Of a stretch of DNA of 25,301 bases, positions 10,535 through 25,301 are shown piece after piece. The notes under the pieces are model-generated. The model had not been told where the DNA came from. It saw nothing but the letters and a program-made list of their open reading frames with translations, and did no database searches. The DNA comes from a virus (taxonomy: Duplodnaviria; Caudoviricetes): IMG/VR virus record IMGVR_UViG_3300042481_000276, positions 1 to 25,301 of that record; one strand, written 5' to 3'. Each line of letters begins with the position of its first letter. Position 1 is the first letter of the stretch. Made by a program: the position numbers and the translations under genes.

Positions 10535-12274
10535 TCAGGACTCCAGAATTCTGCCAGTTTTTGTGAACGACTTCGCGTTGCCGATTGCAACCGATAAATA
10601 ACCGCCTTGATCAGCCGTTTCGTAATCTGCTTCAGATGGTCTTAAGTAGCCGTTTTCACCGGGCTTGACGGGCGGTTTGAGGTTCTTTGGCATCTCGTCG
10701 TCGAATACTTCCAGCAGCGAACAGCGGCAGTTGCTTGAAACGATTCCGTTTGCTATAATGTAGGTGCTTTGTGATGTTTCAAAATCGTAAACAGGAATTA
10801 CACCTTGCGATATACTGATATCAATCTTGACGATCTTCGTGCAGCTTACGAGTCCGGGGACAGCGTCCTGAAGATGTCGAAGGATTTCGCTTTGTCTAGG
10901 TCTGGAATCACACTCCGACTTAAAAGGATGAGCCTCCCCATCCGCACCGGCTCCGAGGCTAATGTTGTCCGGATGTCGCGACTGTCCCCAGAGGGCCGCA
11001 GCGTCCTCACGAGATCGGCCAACAAGGCCGCCTGTGGCCGAAAGGCAAGCATCGAGGAACGTGTCAAGAGAGCCAAGACTGTTGAGCGTATCGGCGGAAT
11101 AGCGACCAGCGACCACGAGAGGCAACTCGGACGGCTGTTGACCGAAAGAGGCGTCGCGTTCACTGCTCAGAAGGCGTTCGGCATCTACAATGTCGATATT
11201 GCCATGACAACCTCTCCCATCGCCGTGGAGATCTACGGGGGAAGCTGGCACGCTTCGGGGCGGCACGGCGCTCGCCATGCGGATCGCGTCGAACACCTGC
11301 TCAGCATTGGCTGGACAGTTGTTATCGTTTGGGTAACTACCAAGTGGGGTAAGGGGGTCCATTTGGATGGCCGTGCTGCGGATTATATCGTCACCCTCTC
11401 GAAGGTCTTGGGCAGACGCCCATCCGCTAGAGGTCAATATCATGTGATTCGGGGTGACGGTGAATTCGCTTCCGTCAGCAGTGCAAACCCTCACCAAGCT
11501 GCCCTGATACTTGGCAGACATGGCGGAAATCAAACCAGAGGTAATGACGGGCGTTTCGCCTAGTACGCAACCGGGATGGAAAGGCGGGAACTTCAGGTCC
11601 TTGTAGGTCTTATTGTTACCGTTCGTTCCGAATGTCCCGCCCTTGGGGATAATCGGGCACAGCCGATAAATCATGTGACACATGGGGCAGGCGTCACCCG
11701 AGACGAGTAACTCCCATCCGGCAATGAAATCAAGGCTTTCGGCGGCCTTAACCAGTCCGGTGTTGTAAGCCCGTGCTGATTCGGTGATTGCAATCCGCCG
11801 TGCTCGCCAGCGTGCATTGTCCTTGATCCAAGTGCTGATTCGGTCAGTCAATTCGCCCGCCGTTTCACCGGATTCAATGGACGCTGCGATATCCAGACGC
11901 ATGCCTTCCAGCGTCTTGAGCGTGTCGCTGGTGAATTGTTCGATGGTCTCGTTACACAGGTCCAGAACAGCCTCGCGAGCGGCTTGAAGCACCTCAGGAG
12001 CACGGACTAGCCATTGATCGGCATCCTGCTGATCAAGCGACACCAGCAGTGACCGGCCTGACTGGTCGATCCATGCCTCGATGACGGGAATGAATTTGCC
12101 AGCCATGTCCAATGGTGCGGTGAACGGGTCGGCTTCCTTCTTACGGTCGTAAATCGCGAGCCACGGTCTTGCCACGTTGTTGCCCAGTTCCGTCAGGATG
12201 CGGCGGGCAATACGCTCCAACTCCGTGCCGCTTGGCATGGCATTGAGCCTGCTCTTAGGTGTTTTGCGTTTCAT
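10535..12274 (-). CDS. MuF / SPP1 gp7-like head morphogenesis protein precursor containing an intein
   Basis: RARRIAITESARAYN, CPMC, and the PPFHPG|CRC motif interrupted by a 280-aa insert. Spliced product would be 299 aa. Confidence 0.9.
   Translation of the reverse strand: MKRKTPKSRLNAMPSGTELERIARRILTELGNNVARPWLAIYDRKKEADPFTAPLDMAGKFIPVIEAWIDQSGRSLLVSLDQQDADQWLVRAPEVLQAAREAVLDLCNETIEQFTSDTLKTLEGMRLDIAASIESGETAGELTDRISTWIKDNARWRARRIAITESARAYNTGLVKAAESLDFIAGWELLVSGDACPMCHMIYRLCPIIPKGGTFGTNGNNKTYKDLKFPPFHPGCVLGETPVITSGLISAMSAKYQGSLVRVCTADGSEFTVTPNHMILTSSGWASAQDLREGDDIIRSTAIQMDPLTPLGSYPNDNNCPANAEQVFDAIRMASAVPPRSVPASPVDLHGDGRGCHGNIDIVDAERLLSSERDASFGQQPSELPLVVAGRYSADTLNSLGSLDTFLDACLSATGGLVGRSREDAAALWGQSRHPDNISLGAGADGEAHPFKSECDSRPRQSEILRHLQDAVPGLVSCTKIVKIDISISQGVIPVYDFETSQSTYIIANGIVSSNCRCSLLEVFDDEMPKNLKPPVKPGENGYLRPSEADYETADQGGYLSVAIGNAKSFTKTGRILES
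10731..10759 (+). promoter_or_regulatory. sigma70-type promoter for the antisense endonuclease, inside the intein C-terminal codons
   Basis: TTGCTT (10731-10736), 17-nt spacer, TATAAT (10754-10759) with extended TG (10751-10752). AGGA at 10793-10796 lies 8 nt before TTG 10805. Confidence 0.75.
10805..11563 (+). CDS. HTH + Vsr/DUF559-like endonuclease (putative homing endonuclease) antisense to the intein
   Basis: N-terminal HTH-like region (LRAAYESGDSVLKMSKDFALSRSGITLRLKRM), then SDHERQLGRLL..G..F.AQ...IYNVDIA...IAVEIYGGSWH...DR..HLLSIGWTVVIVW. Confidence 0.85.
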   Translation: MRYTDINLDDLRAAYESGDSVLKMSKDFALSRSGITLRLKRMSLPIRTGSEANVVRMSRLSPEGRSVLTRSANKAACGRKASIEERVKRAKTVERIGGIATSDHERQLGRLLTERGVAFTAQKAFGIYNVDIAMTTSPIAVEIYGGSWHASGRHGARHADRVEHLLSIGWTVVIVWVTTKWGKGVHLDGRAADYIVTLSKVLGRRPSARGQYHVIRGDGEFASVSSANPHQAALILGRHGGNQTRGNDGRFA

Positions 12275-16750: not shown

Positions 16751-17301
16751 AGTGTTCCGTTTGCATTTGGAGGTATCGCCCACAACACGGGCATTTCGGC
16801 GGCGAATTGGGCGGGTGTGGGTACACTTCGAAGTCCCGCCAGCACGTCTGATTCGATCTTGTAGGCAACTTCGTAGCATCTCTGCCTGAACGACTTAGCG
16901 GCAACCCCGTCAGCGGCCCATTGCGGTACCGGACTGTCAAACCATGTGATGGCCGATGAAATAGAATCGAAGTCGCGTGGTGCAACCTGGGCATCCATGT
17001 GCTGATCCAAGAGTTGCTTGAGGATCGCTTTTTGTGACCTTAAATAGCCCATCTGTTCATCAGGCGTGAGCGTGACCACAGCCCATGTTTCAGTGACCTT
17101 CGAGCCTACCAGTTTCAACGTCTGAAGCAGTCGAGTTGTGGCTGGATTGATTGTCGGCTTAACCGATGGCGTGAACGGGTAGAAGCCGTATTGAGCTAGT
17201 ATATCGGCGTCCAGCGTGTGGAAGTTGCTGACGTTGGCGAAGGTCGTTGGCAACACTTGAGGTGATCCGATTTGACCGTTTTTGACTTGGCAGAATTGCA
17301 T
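16747..17301 (-). CDS. putative fibre assembly chaperone/accessory protein
   Basis: 184 aa after the fibre/lectin genes, with an LDQHMDAQV..RDFDSISSAITW pattern. Confidence 0.5.
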   Translation of the reverse strand: MQFCQVKNGQIGSPQVLPTTFANVSNFHTLDADILAQYGFYPFTPSVKPTINPATTRLLQTLKLVGSKVTETWAVVTLTPDEQMGYLRSQKAILKQLLDQHMDAQVAPRDFDSISSAITWFDSPVPQWAADGVAAKSFRQRCYEVAYKIESDVLAGLRSVPTPAQFAAEMPVLWAIPPNANGTL

Positions 17302-21291: not shown

Positions 21292-22644
21292 TTAGGAGAC
21301 CCATCTGAACGGTTGTACTGAGGAGAGATAGCTGAACGTGTCGGCAGCAGCATCGACTTGATCGTCATGCTTGCCGGTTGGGAATGAGCACAATTCGTCG
21401 ATGAAATCACGGTTCCAGTCGCCTTTTTCCAGCTCAATCGAACCGGATTCAAAAGCAGCGGCCATTGGCATAGCCCGCACTTCTTTTGAGCCTGTGGGGC
21501 GTTTGCTGATGACTCCATAACCGATCAGGTTGCGGGTATCGTGCTGGACCTGATCGACACCCGCGGAGCCGGGGTCTTGTGCCAGATGGACGATCGTTTC
21601 GCGGCCATCAGTCTCAGCAATCTGACGCTGAATTGTGCGACGGGTAGCAGGCGACCACTGCCCGCGTGAAACGTGCTTGATTCGGTAGATGTCGCCGGTC
21701 CTGCACATCCACACACCGGCAGTGTAATCACCACCACCGACCGTTGCGGCTGTGTCCCATGCTCGGCATGAGTTGGAGTTGAGTGGTATCGGCGATGGAT
21801 CGATGATCCTGAACCATTCCGGTCGAAAGAAACCGCCATCACGTGGCGTGGGTGTCTGCTGATAGAGGGCTGAAAAGGCGTAGGAACCGACGGTCTTTTT
21901 GATCCGGTCGAAGTCTTCCACGGAATACCGTTCCGGCCACAGCGCCTCACCGGGCTGACGACCGATCAGGTCATCCGCTTCAGCAATGGCCGGAAGGCTG
22001 ACCACATCCCACTGTTCGCCACCGTCATTGGCCTGTTCGAGCAATTGGCCAGCCAAGTCGAGAGAGTGCCAGCGTGTCATGATCAGGACGATTGCCGCAC
22101 CAGGGTGAAGGCGTGTGTAGAGGTCGTTTTGAAACCAATCCATCACCCTGGCACGATAGGTGGGTGATTCGGCCTCAGCACGCGACTTCACTGGGTCATC
22201 GATAATGACCAAATCAGCACCGTAGCCTGTGACACCAGAGCCGACACCAACCGCATAAAGCCCGCCACCGTGTTCACTTGACCACTGATTCTGTTTGTTT
22301 TGGTCGTCGGAAAACTCGAAACCGAATTCCTTGGCGATCCGGCGTGTCTGACGCGAGAAAGTGCAGGCAAGAGAGTGATTGTAGGCTCCAATGATCACCC
22401 GTAAACTCTGGTCCAGCAATAACCTGTAACCAGCGTAATGGATCGTTGCCAGCTCACTCTTGCCGTGCCTGGGCGGCAAGAAGAGCATCAACCGTTTGCA
22501 ATCACCGGTCGTCACCCTGTCCAGCGCCCGGCGGCATTCCGCCAAGTGTTCGGGCGACCACTGGTGTGCTGGTGTTGCCGCTTGAAGGAAGCGGTTTAGG
22601 CCCCTTGGAATTAACTGTTTTGCGTGGTGGCGTGTCGCACTCAT
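21292..22644 (-). CDS. terL: terminase large subunit
   Basis: Walker A LPPRHGKS, Walker B IIDDP, nuclease motifs RAWDTA and HDDQVDA. Confidence 0.95.
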   Translation of the reverse strand: MSATRHHAKQLIPRGLNRFLQAATPAHQWSPEHLAECRRALDRVTTGDCKRLMLFLPPRHGKSELATIHYAGYRLLLDQSLRVIIGAYNHSLACTFSRQTRRIAKEFGFEFSDDQNKQNQWSSEHGGGLYAVGVGSGVTGYGADLVIIDDPVKSRAEAESPTYRARVMDWFQNDLYTRLHPGAAIVLIMTRWHSLDLAGQLLEQANDGGEQWDVVSLPAIAEADDLIGRQPGEALWPERYSVEDFDRIKKTVGSYAFSALYQQTPTPRDGGFFRPEWFRIIDPSPIPLNSNSCRAWDTAATVGGGDYTAGVWMCRTGDIYRIKHVSRGQWSPATRRTIQRQIAETDGRETIVHLAQDPGSAGVDQVQHDTRNLIGYGVISKRPTGSKEVRAMPMAAAFESGSIELEKGDWNRDFIDELCSFPTGKHDDQVDAAADTFSYLSSVQPFRWVS

Positions 22645-22915
22645 TATCGAGACTTGCCCAGTCGATTTGGGGTTTATCGCTGATTTCGATGTTCGTCGTC
22701 ACCTTGCCGTCCATCCGGTCCCAGATTGCTGACCAGTAACGGAAGTCACCTTCCAGAGCCATCTTCAGGCCCTTTTGGACCATCGCCCGTAGCAGTTCTG
22801 GCTTAGATTCCAGCTCTGCTTCGAGGGCGATCTGGAGCGGCTTTTTTGGACGACCACCGGTGTTTCCAGAGACGCCTTTGGGCCACGGTTTAAGGTTTTG
22901 GAGGTTCGGTGGCAT
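22502..22915 (-). CDS. terminase small subunit (putative)
   Basis: N-terminus NLKPWPKGVSGNTGGRPK and WDRMDGKV; directly upstream of TerL. Confidence 0.75.
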   Translation of the reverse strand: MPPNLQNLKPWPKGVSGNTGGRPKKPLQIALEAELESKPELLRAMVQKGLKMALEGDFRYWSAIWDRMDGKVTTNIEISDKPQIDWASLDNECDTPPRKTVNSKGPKPLPSSGNTSTPVVARTLGGMPPGAGQGDDR

Positions 22916-22918
22916 GCG

Positions 22919-23614
22919 TCACTGTTTTTCCATTGGGGGTAGTGGCGGGTTCAGAAGCGTTCGGGTCGGAGTCGCACCGCCCCCTTCTGACTGGATGCCA
23001 GACGTGCCGCTGTCAGCACTTCGAACGCGTTTTGGATACGGTTGTCTGAGTGGTTCGATCTTGGCTCGCATCTCGTCATCAAGGGGCATGAGATACTTGT
23101 GCTTTGCTGACTTCGGGACATTCCGAGATCCTTCAGGCAGATTTGTTCCATAAAGGCTGTATGCTTGCCTTCGATGCATCATTCGGCCATTCACGACGAC
23201 ATTAGACTCACCGCCGTGCGTTCCTGTGAACGGCCATCCGCAAGCCTGGTAAATCCCGCCATGATGACCTTGCCCTGTATCTGCGTAGCTGACGACAAGC
23301 CGAATTCCTGGGCAAGCCTTTTTCAGAAACTTGATCGCAAGAGCCAAGATCTTGCTGACTTCGTTTGCGTGATTTCCGAGAGCCACCCTTGTCAATTCAC
23401 AGACCTCGACAGGCTTTAAGCTGTACGGCTTGTGAATGTTCTGATTTGCTCCAAGTGAAAAATAGACACAGCCTATGAACCGTCCGCTTTCCCATGCACC
23501 AATTTTTACCGACTTCCCCGCCGGAAGGGACTTAGAGTAATGCCAATGCTCAACAGCATATTTTGCTGCCTCATGAGTGCACCAATCAAGTTTGAGTTCA
23601 GGGCGTGAAGACAT
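22919..23614 (-). CDS. mom: Mu Mom-like DNA adenine hypermodification enzyme (GNAT fold)
   Basis: Motif series matches Mu Mom as I recall it: HYS, ELTR, VVSYAD..QGH.G.IYQA.GW...G, HKYL, QPYPK. Likely start MSSRPE at 23614. Confidence 0.85.
   Translation of the reverse strand: MSSRPELKLDWCTHEAAKYAVEHWHYSKSLPAGKSVKIGAWESGRFIGCVYFSLGANQNIHKPYSLKPVEVCELTRVALGNHANEVSKILALAIKFLKKACPGIRLVVSYADTGQGHHGGIYQACGWPFTGTHGGESNVVVNGRMMHRRQAYSLYGTNLPEGSRNVPKSAKHKYLMPLDDEMRAKIEPLRQPYPKRVRSADSGTSGIQSEGGGATPTRTLLNPPLPPMEKQ
22956..23028 (-). tRNA. non-canonical tRNA-Gly(UCC)-like element nested in the mom-like gene
   Basis: Acceptor stem GCGTTCG/CGAACGC plus U73; D stem GTGC/GCAC; anticodon stem TCTGG/TCAGA with loop CATCCAG; T arm GGCGG-TGCGACT-CCG(A)CC. 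73 nt, no encoded CCA. Confidence 0.8.
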
Positions 23615-24107
23615 GACCACACCCCGGGCATTCAGTTTTAGCCTTCTCATCAAGCCTGCCTTGATCATCAATCGAGCCAGGCTGAAAGTCGGGTGTCAGC
23701 AACTCGCTCCCCAACCCCTCCACAAGTGCGTCAATCTCGCCATCACTATACCCTGCCGCAGCCGTATCGAACTCCTCCGATTGCAACGCCCGCAAGGTCT
23801 CAGCCAGCGCCGTGGTATCCCACTCGGCCAGTTCCGCCGTCCGGTTGTCAGCGATGGCGTAAGCGGTCGCAGCCGATCCAGTGAGCGACGACTCGACCAC
23901 CTTGATATCGCTCCACCCTAGTTTGACTGCGGCCATGTACCGACCGTTGCCGGATAGGATGATGCCCTTGGAGTCGATCACAATCGGGTGTTGCTGCCCA
24001 AACTTGCGAAGGCTGGCAACGATCGCGTCAATGTTCCGCTCCCCGTGCTTTCGCAGGTTCGCAGGGTCCTGAGATATCGAGCCGATGGCGACTGTCTTGA
24101 TTTTCAT
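23598..24107 (-). CDS. ParB/Srx N-terminal domain protein
   Basis: DPANLRKH, SLRKFGQQHPIVID, LSGNGR, IADNRTAELAEWD and C-terminal CPGCGHVF. Confidence 0.88.
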   Translation of the reverse strand: MKIKTVAIGSISQDPANLRKHGERNIDAIVASLRKFGQQHPIVIDSKGIILSGNGRYMAAVKLGWSDIKVVESSLTGSAATAYAIADNRTAELAEWDTTALAETLRALQSEEFDTAAAGYSDGEIDALVEGLGSELLTPDFQPGSIDDQGRLDEKAKTECPGCGHVFTP

Positions 24108-24574
24108 TTGAGCTTTCGGGTCCTGCGTTTAGCCTTCTTGTCGCGTGCCTCAGCCTCAGCTTCAGAAGCCTCAGCGAAAATATCGTCGATCCGCTCGTGC
24201 TCAAGTTCTCGCTCGAAACCCGTGGAATGGCAGGCAGCACAATAGAGCCGAGACCCGCGTTTGATCCCACGGCAACGATCACACGTGGCCGGGTCCTGAT
24301 CCTGTGTCTCAGGCGTCCAATCACCCTGGCCGAACACGACGCCAATCACGGCGGGTGCTTTGCGTGATTTAGTTGGGTCAACCATCTTGCGATACGTGTT
24401 GCGGCAGACGCCGAGGACTCGGCAGGCGTCTGTGTCTTTCACATTTTCGAGCAGAAGGAGAAGCGCGAAAGCACGTCGCACAACTGCTACATCCACTTTA
24501 GTGCTACGCCCGCGGTTGCCGCGGTTGCTGAGATTGCTGAGGGCAACCTTGACGCCAGAAGTGTCAACAAGCAT
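24104..24574 (-). CDS. putative DNA-binding regulator (HTH + Zn ribbon)
   Basis: HTH-like DTDACRVLGVCRNTYRKM, CDRC...CAAC and a basic tail. Confidence 0.6.
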   Translation of the reverse strand: MLVDTSGVKVALSNLSNRGNRGRSTKVDVAVVRRAFALLLLLENVKDTDACRVLGVCRNTYRKMVDPTKSRKAPAVIGVVFGQGDWTPETQDQDPATCDRCRGIKRGSRLYCAACHSTGFERELEHERIDDIFAEASEAEAEARDKKAKRRTRKLK

Positions 24575-24808
24575 GGTGTTCGCCTCGCGTTTTACCTATA
24601 AGGTGTGGTACGTGTTCACTTTCGGTGAAAATAAAGTCGTAAGTCATGGTGTGGTAACGAATTAAAAAATATTAATTTTGTTCACGCCTCCTGCGGGTGT
24701 GGGACTCCACCAGACTGACCGGAGGTAACGGGATCGGCCCAAGATCGGCAAGGTTGGCCTTGTCACCATGCAATGCCCGAAGCCGTGACCATTTGCGGCT
24801 CCGGTGAA

Positions 24809-25033
24809 TTAGTTGGCATCGCCATTCCCTTTCAGTTCTCGCTCGTTCTTGCATTTGGTTGGGTCCCACTTCGGCTTGGGGTCTGGATCGGACAGGAAAA
24901 CGGACGAGACTTTGGTGATGATGTCGGGGTCGTCCGTGTCCACTTGGTAGGTCACAATGTGGTTCTCCTGCCTTGCGCCGTGCAGGATCATGTTCCGAAG
25001 TGCGTGAAATGCAACCATAAATCGTGCCATCAC
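24809..25033 (-). CDS. hypothetical protein
   Basis: 74 aa, coupled to the upstream gene's stop. Confidence 0.55.
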   Translation of the reverse strand: MMARFMVAFHALRNMILHGARQENHIVTYQVDTDDPDIITKVSSVFLSDPDPKPKWDPTKCKNERELKGNGDAN

Positions 25034-25284
25034 ACACCACCTGCCACGCGTGACATCATGAACTCGTGATACTTGGCAATCGCGAACGCCGATCTTTTGT
25101 CCGTTGCTCCCCTCAGCAGGTAGAGTGGATCACCCTTTTTACCGGACGGCCCGTAGATTGACTCTAAGCCAGCCCTCAGTGTCGCGTCAGTGAGTTTACC
25201 ACCGGCGGTGATCCATTGACCGTAATCACGCCGAGTGTAGACGGTGAGCGGTATTTGCTCGTACTCGGCTGTAACTTTCACCAT
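25030..25284 (-). CDS. hypothetical protein (may extend beyond the window)
   Basis: 84-aa ORF at the window edge. Confidence 0.55.
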   Translation of the reverse strand: MVKVTAEYEQIPLTVYTRRDYGQWITAGGKLTDATLRAGLESIYGPSGKKGDPLYLLRGATDKRSAFAIAKYHEFMMSRVAGGV

Positions 25285-25301
25285 GCCGATAAACTGGCTG
25301 G

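Follow-up and report, generated by a model that had tools for sequence, protein, structure and literature searches.

Mom of bacteriophage Mu modifies adenine in double-stranded DNA by placing on its N6 a glycine taken from Gly-tRNAGly; the enzyme accepts all three E. coli tRNAGly isoacceptors and rejects Gly-tRNAAla, as stated in PMC13219725. An earlier note on the locus described here had named this donor correctly. How the phage taps Gly-tRNA without fighting translation was left open in that 2026 paper, with late expression suggested (PMC13219725). A competition of this kind has been described in staphylococci: in vitro, EF-Tu withholds Gly-tRNA from FmhB, a transferase that depends on tRNA (PMC7826273). 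The affinity of EF-Tu is set by the T-stem pairs 49:65, 50:64, and 51:63 (PMC7826273, PMC11231383), and the dedicated tRNAGly species NP1–NP3, which serve the glycyl transferases FmhB, FemA, and FemB, escape EF-Tu with altered first T-stem pairs (A49–U65, U50–A64, and A51–U63). According to the same source, these tRNAs are chromosomal and free-standing, have a UCC anticodon and glycine identity, and carry the altered T loop (TGC or TGT) to which the earlier note had pointed (PMC7826273). A third system concerns gene arrangement. In Alphaproteobacteria, the whole tRNASec gene, selC, can lie in the 3′ end of selB, whose product is the protein using this tRNA, so that selB acquires a read-through tail; variants with the stop codon inside or before the tRNA and antisense variants also occur, and Mukai proposed an either-or model of processing (PMC8124441).

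Here we describe a phage locus in which a tRNA-Gly-like RNA lies within the reading frame of a mom gene. The ingredients are known, namely a tRNA-dependent Mom, nonproteogenic tRNAGly, and a tRNA situated within the gene of its partner; we did not find their combination, or the RNA family itself, in print. Our literature search returned no published report of a mom-embedded tRNA-Gly-like RNA, and subscription papers and some supplements may bear on this point. The RNA is not mentioned in the main text and two supplementary files of PMC13219725, nor in the accessible parts of its 2023 preprint and of PMC5389517.

The mom gene of the window

The window, by which we mean the whole 25,301-nt stretch of DNA analyzed, is a linear virus record with a head and packaging module on the minus strand (Table 1). 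The start of mom overlaps the last codons of a ParB-like gene, and its stop lies 3 nt ahead of a DUF5681 gene that, judging by its position, presumably encodes the small terminase. A promoter scan of 22600–25301 gave no sigma-70-like site, which does not argue against a separate promoter, and three terminator-like sites, the same number as in shuffles.

Table 1. Features of the mom locus, in window positions
Feature	Position	Strand	Basis
mom-family gene, 231 aa	22919..23614	-	PF25680 E 1.9e-41; PHROG 1384 E 3.9e-55; 8bv8 match
Folded Mom (GNAT) domain, residues 1–195, QPYPK end	23030..23614	-	Pfam match 7–195; pLDDT; Mu end
tRNA-Gly-derived cloverleaf, 73 nt, within mom frame	22956..23028	-	sequence, fold, covariation, model R1
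Anticodon-like loop, UCC at 22995–22993, A replaces U33	22991..22997	-	sequence; family counts
T arm, U54-G55-C56, bulged A 22966 between pairs 51:63 and 50:64	22964..22981	-	sequence; bulge in 74/77 of family
C-terminal tail, 36 residues, translated across RNA, predicted disordered	22922..23029	-	pLDDT <50, residues 200–216, 218–222
ParB-like gene, upstream, overlaps mom start	23598..24107	-	PHROG 620 E 1.5e-43
DUF5681 gene, starts 3 nt past mom stop	22502..22915	-	PF18932 E 8.9e-7
Large terminase	21292..22644	-	Pfam Terminase_6N/6C; PHROG 38 E 2e-100

The gene at 23614–22919 is mom, in agreement with the earlier note. Its product matches PF25680 with 142 bits (cut-off 27.1), and its sole sequence match in the PDB is Mu Mom (8bv8, E 2.6e-6). 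Mu Mom is also the best Foldseek match (E 4e-11, TM 0.63–0.72) of the AlphaFold model, which has the GNAT fold and a pLDDT of 88.5, with block means of 86–98 up to residue 190. Six aligned residues are shared by the two proteins: H58/Y59, R111, S124, D149, and Y159 of Mu Mom correspond to H25/Y26, R76, S87, D112, and Y122 in the window, so that the catalytic R111 and S124 are present as R76 and S87. R151, however, which is essential in Mu, is replaced by G114 (and is not an arginine in the other non-Mu-type rows of the alignment), and neither W48 nor W181 of Mu is retained. Because these three residues are not kept and glycyl donation is known from Mu Mom only, the modification activity of the window's Mom clade is presumptive.

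The two proteins also differ at their C termini. Mu Mom ends in QPYPK followed directly by a stop codon, as the earlier note had it, and uses host tRNAGly, whereas the window frame runs 36 residues further, through a tRNA-Gly-like RNA. The QPYPK codons end at 23030; a single C follows, the 73-nt cloverleaf begins at 23028 on the minus strand, and the ORF continues through it to a stop at 22921–22919. This arrangement, which the earlier note had pointed out, is confirmed by the sequence.

Other genes of the window were noted in passing. The ORF at 16879–16232 (minus strand) ends in what we take to be a PEP-CTERM-like sorting motif, hinting at a Planctomycete-like host; it has no family match in PHROGs. 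A PAPS-reductase-family gene (13836–13066, minus strand; Pfam, PHROG) stands amid the head genes and is a possible second DNA-modification function. A DUF559/Vsr-like endonuclease ORF (10805–11563, plus strand) lies antisense inside the intein of a MuF-like head gene (12274–10535, minus strand) and is probably of a known kind; antisense VSR-like endonucleases in inteins are described in bioRxiv 2025.01.02.630785.

A conserved tRNA-Gly-like RNA family

The cloverleaf of the window has a 7-bp acceptor stem followed by A8-A9, a D arm with a 4-bp stem and an 8-nt loop without the G18G19 pair, and a 5-bp anticodon stem closed by the loop C32 A33 U34 C35 C36 A37 G38. A 4-nt variable loop leads to a T arm with a 5-bp stem and the sequence G53 U54 G55 C56, in which one A (22966) is unpaired between positions 63 and 64. 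The discriminator base is U73, and CCA is not encoded. Bacterial glycine identity rests on G1–C72, C2–G71, C35, C36, U73, and G10 (PMC9976931); the window copy carries all of these together with G3–C70, and the glycine set that the earlier note had read from it, including the anticodon UCC, is present. Canonical tRNA marks are absent, with A8, no GG in the D loop, A33, UGC in the T loop, and the bulged A.

Taken alone, the fold is modest (z −2.22, with 7 of 200 shuffles equally good). Default ARAGORN calls no tRNA in the window, and an Rfam (RF00005) search gives no tRNA match at the cloverleaf. At a relaxed threshold of 85, as envisaged in the earlier note, ARAGORN does call tRNA-Gly(tcc) here, but as 1 of 10 calls in the window, which is too noisy to serve as evidence; in mitochondrial mode the cloverleaf is 1 of 3 calls. 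One assembled contig of a related strain spans the element, and contigs cannot show RNA ends.

What raises the cloverleaf above chance is that it is conserved and covaries in homologues. A protein search of IMG/VR supplied the best 80 of 148 loci, with 47–100% protein identity. The covariation alignment comprises 37 distinct copies of 73 nt, taken from the window, from 35 viral loci, and from one cultured phage, and is nearly gapless; 96.1% of its 777 cells are paired, and 15 of 21 pairs show compensatory, two-sided changes. None of 500 shuffles scored as high, slid controls reached 34–42%, and RNAalifold returned the same cloverleaf unprompted. A covariance model built on this alignment, R1, scores the window copy at 89.2 bits with the window sequence in its training set. 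It matches 61 of 61 viral loci (19 of the 80 having been omitted as duplicates), 35 of which are training rows and 26, all matched, are new; two score only 28–31 bits. One seed word of the first protein search overlapped the element, a bias that was handled by a tail-less query and by the RNA-first searches below. The tail-less query found the element directly after mom at 13 of 13 GTDB loci (one cut by the contig end), from genomes labeled with several phyla. The window cloverleaf belongs to a conserved RNA family.

Among 12 cultured-phage records, R1 matches Martha, Wyborn, Salinibacter phage B2_17, and a more ordinary, antisense tRNA-Gly(CCC) in MenE and finds no match in phiEf11, Mu, JD024, Pan3, VSiP, P12002L, DSL-LC03, and PK3.6. 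Pan3 has a short unbulged form that R1 missed and a sequence parser recognized. A model search of four genomes matched three and missed a known element in the fourth (G002), so absence is not something that this tool tests.

To describe what the family keeps, we counted 77 unique elements found via the Mom protein, dropping the distant L088, L090, and L091 and the broken copy L078. Anticodon loops were located by pairing and not by sequence; 60 have seven nucleotides, and 17 of the 77 were parsed as 6 or 8 nt. The acceptor end is close to invariant, with G1–C72, C2–G71, and U73 in 77/77 and G3–C70 in 76/77, and C35 and C36 occur in 60/60 seven-nucleotide loops, so the NCC anticodon and U73 that the earlier note singled out are retained. 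The bulged A of the T stem is found in 74/77 (it is missing in Martha, Wyborn, and Pan3), C51–G63 in 72/77, and G50–C64 in 74/77, where T. thermophilus GlyRS reads C50–G64.

Other positions drift. U8 occurs in only 4 of 77 elements and U33 in 16 of 60 loops, the wobble position is A in 32, U in 23, C in 3, and G in 2, and GG is seen in the D loop of 10 of the 54 long forms; in the short forms, which make up the other 23 of the 77, the D arm is reduced or missing altogether. The T loop starts with TGC in 30, GGC in 17, TTC in 14, and something else in 16, and TGC or TGT, as in staphylococci, accounts for 35 of 77, among them the window copy with TGC. Thus, A8, A33, GUGC, and the T-stem bulge, which the earlier note took as lost translational features, all stand for the window copy, but GUGC, the most frequent T-loop start (30/77), does not hold family-wide, and 3 of 77 elements lack the bulge; what marks the family as a whole is its glycine identity set together with a bulged T arm. 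CCA is encoded in 39/77, comprising 16/54 long and 23/23 short forms. These counts indicate that a free aminoacyl end is under selection; the 38 of 54 long forms without CCA set off the short forms, which are perhaps poor substrates for the CCA-adding enzyme. At two metagenomic, Mom-linked loci with encoded CCA (L657 and L677), the anticodon arm ends in a loop of 3 nt in which CC is lost.

As a control we used 64 unique ordinary phage tRNA-Gly, found with a corresponding pattern in which the T arm is unbulged and has TTC. They share the acceptor end, U73, C35/C36, and the cloverleaf with the family, but they keep U8 (62), U33 (62), and the D-loop GG (61), and none has A34. C51–G63 is found in 16 of the 64, so this pair alone is no bar to EF-Tu. 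U33 and the tRNA elbow are required on the ribosome. It is highly improbable, in our estimation, that the element is an odd but functional tRNA-Gly refilling a pool drained by Mom. Such a tRNA would suit the more canonical members that lie 5′ of the Mom domain (U8 in 12/12), the annotation of the B2_17 copy as tRNA-Gly, and the tRNA-Gly(CCC) with U33 that lies antisense beside mom in MenE; it would not suit a family whose wobble base is most often A34, in which 44/60 have lost U33, and in which 6–8-nt loops and D-armless forms are common, none of which marks the 64 ordinary tRNA-Gly.

The resemblance to NP1–NP3 is closer: glycine identity, the TGC T loop, altered first T-stem pairs, and a tRNA-dependent glycyl transferase as partner that competes with EF-Tu. 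The phage RNA is, however, viral and nested in the enzyme's own gene, has G–C/G–C/C–G pairs plus the bulged A, leaves the wobble base free, includes D-armless forms, and would have DNA as its target. Because the T-stem pairs differ, we liken the phage RNA to the staphylococcal lineage but place it outside.

Association with mom and nesting in its reading frame

The link to mom was approached from the RNA side as well; the counts that follow hold among the matches listed, with flanks obtained for 80 of ~120 loci and contigs recurring between sets. With the first RNA pattern, 73 of 80 loci have a same-strand Mom gene, all 73 above the Pfam cut-off, and 6 of the other 7 have less than 340 nt of upstream flank. 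This pattern fixed the anticodon loop, so anticodon counts from it were not used. A second pattern, an 18-nt T arm, is silent on anticodon and acceptor; among its viral cloverleafs with full flanks, Mom lies within 1.2 kb in 64 of 65, and all 55 seven-nucleotide loops read N-C-C. Metagenomic loci with a cloverleaf and full flanks gave 37 of 39, as against 0 of 62 for ordinary phage tRNA-Gly over the same 1.2 kb.

The association is one-sided. No element was found at 45 Mu-type Mom loci, many of which lack the 3′ flank, or at 80 cyanophage-type loci within the flanks examined, and phiEf11 is without it inside the window's own clade. At L107 (the same contig as L361, with the same element in L613) and at L622, the 1.2 kb around a bulged RNA contain no Mom; at L107 it sits between a 360-aa ORF, glycosyltransferase-like by eye, and terminase-like genes, and these RNAs possibly serve another partner enzyme. 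In a quick-mode tree of 163 of 365 proteins (after dereplication, with loci without flank removed), carriers form three or more groups that stand well apart: the PYPK clade to which the window belongs, a clade beside Mu/JD024, and several lineages with a 5′ element. L394, L400, L414, and L078 carry the element even where the tree labels them "none," and change counts from the tree were not used. The element counts are not independent events because the sets share contigs and ancestry.

The tie to mom also bears on whether the RNA could be a decoy or nuclease-proof stand-in that absorbs host toxins or anticodon nucleases aimed at tRNAGly and so spares the host glycyl supply for Mom. Free drift at 32–34 and 37–38 would, we infer, blunt anticodon-loop nucleases, and U73 and G71 are also read by the Gly-tRNA-acetylating toxin TacT (PMC9976931). 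A decoy, however, gives no reason for a tie to mom rather than to other late genes (64/65 versus 0/62) and fails to account for the spread of one T-arm design over prophages in genomes from many phyla, and we regard it as quite improbable.

The element is nested in the mom frame at either end of the gene. Among the first-pattern matches listed, 20 of 73 loci have it 5′ of the Mom domain, mostly ending 1–7 nt before it, with in-frame start codons upstream of or within the RNA. No stop interrupts the Mom frame across the element in 124 of 147 3′ cases, compared with 79 and 51 for the alternative frames; for the 5′ cases the figures are 31 of 31 against 2 and 4. The Mom frame spans the element fully in 122/147 3′ and 31/31 5′ cases; shared ancestry inflates these frame counts. 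In the remaining 23 of 147 3′ cases, the mom stop lies inside the element, and in 69 of 147 an ATG occurs within −4 to +8 of the mom stop. The nesting looks selected.

Individual loci show further arrangements. L061 (474–1738) has tandem mom genes and an RNA with the second only, the mom stop lying inside the RNA, and the RNA itself is in tandem at L062 (1373–1517), L214 (970–1108), and L141, the copies being 6 nt apart in the first two. In B2_17 (L086, 1288–1823), whose copy is an R1 training row annotated as tRNA-Gly, the RNA lies just past the mom stop; the annotated mom CDS shifts frame ahead of the PYPK end, and this conserved end is found in a different frame, with its stop immediately ahead of the RNA. 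Microbacterium phage MenE is without a nested element, and its annotated tRNA-Gly(CCC) (L084, 1866–1940), antisense and 32 nt past the mom stop, recalls the reversed selC cases.

Could the conservation be a by-product of a conserved peptide tail, or of the decayed remnant of a tRNA from an integration event (attP)? In 120/147 3′ and 31/31 5′ cases the T arm has one and the same reading frame, and P216 is invariant in 41 aligned Mom proteins. The constant T-arm frame may reflect a need to avoid stops or a coupling with the gene that follows, and the short peptide may have a role of its own. Covariation is two-sided, however, and the tail is predicted to be disordered. Across loci the 5′ half of the element is read in all three frames, and C51–G63 is fixed although C51 and G63 fall mostly at third codon positions (placed from counts that include pattern-found loci with fixed bases and serve only for this purpose) and the usage of these codons across the gene body is 31% and 27%. 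For these three reasons (two-sided covariation, different frames of the 5′ half, and fixed third positions), the peptide is not the cause of the conservation. As to integration, the neighbors are ParB and terminase genes, and no integrase is found among the window genes classified by Pfam and PHROG. A by-product is scarcely credible and is largely refuted by the two-sided covariation.

A further question is whether the RNA acts in cis only. As part of the mRNA it would mimic a tRNA, be a target of RNase P cleavage or of binding by GlyRS or Mom, and in this way limit or time Mom and the coupled downstream gene, without ever donating glycine. The open Mom frame and the ATG near the mom stop agree with such a signal, processing would delete the stop codon in the 3′ class or the start codon in the 5′ class, and the model proposed for selC in selB is the same (PMC8124441). 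But a signal needs neither an encoded CCA nor an invariant U73, and the element is also found just after the stop (B2_17), with the stop inside it, and in tandem. We consider a purely cis-acting role unlikely; a cis-acting role is compatible with donation, and one element may do both.

A candidate glycyl donor outside translation

The reading that we favor, and think probable, is that the nested RNA is a non-ribosomal glycyl donor for Mom, cut from the mom transcript and charged by the host. Host RNase P and 3′ trimming would free the RNA, CCA would be encoded or added (for the window copy it must be added), and host GlyRS would charge it with glycine. The bulged A lies among the pairs 49:65, 50:64, and 51:63, and the bulged T stem together with the lost U33 and elbow would bar the RNA from EF-Tu and the ribosome. 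The pool of Gly-RNA would thus be free for Mom, which would use the glycine to modify adenine in DNA. Release would cost the transcript its stop codon in the 3′ class and its start codon in the 5′ class, so that any one transcript would serve as a source of complete Mom or of the RNA but not of both, which would set the ratio of enzyme to donor. The either-or model for selC is the same, but tRNASec is translational and has its own elongation factor, whereas the RNA described here is viral, seems not to decode, and can also be nested at the 5′ end.

Several points go against a donor. The chemistry can proceed without a private donor, since Mu Mom works with host tRNAGly and has no such RNA, and phiEf11 does without it too. 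The window copy has no encoded CCA, and neither R151 nor C50–G64 is kept. In addition, 3 of 77 elements are unbulged, L657 and L677 have no CC loop, and the RNAs of L107/L613 and L622 have no Mom nearby.

More tentatively, and with rather less confidence than doubt, we can picture enzyme and cofactor as a widespread one-gene unit, in which an EF-Tu-proof, orthogonal glycyl carrier is recognized via its invariant bulged T arm and is preferred to, or replaces, the host tRNA. Such a unit would be a module of several deep Mom lineages, placed at either gene end and shrunk to D-armless and even anticodon-less forms.

Overall, the RNA family was overlooked by default annotation in the window, and some of its copies are annotated as plain tRNA-Gly, yet hundreds of viral contigs are involved (an estimated ~940 IMG/VR stretches for one strict pattern). 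With the cultured carriers, Arthrobacter phages Martha and Wyborn, donation is open to direct test, and an aminoacyl carrier that is by nature orthogonal to the ribosome would be of interest as a tool. A donor of this kind would be to viruses what the cell-wall tRNAs are to staphylococci, and a second tRNA of the bacterial world nested in its partner's reading frame; it would also account for the unusual extensions that many Mom proteins have at the C or N terminus. To the question of how a phage taps Gly-tRNA without fighting translation, the RNA family points to an answer other than late expression: a non-decoding carrier brought along inside the gene of the enzyme.
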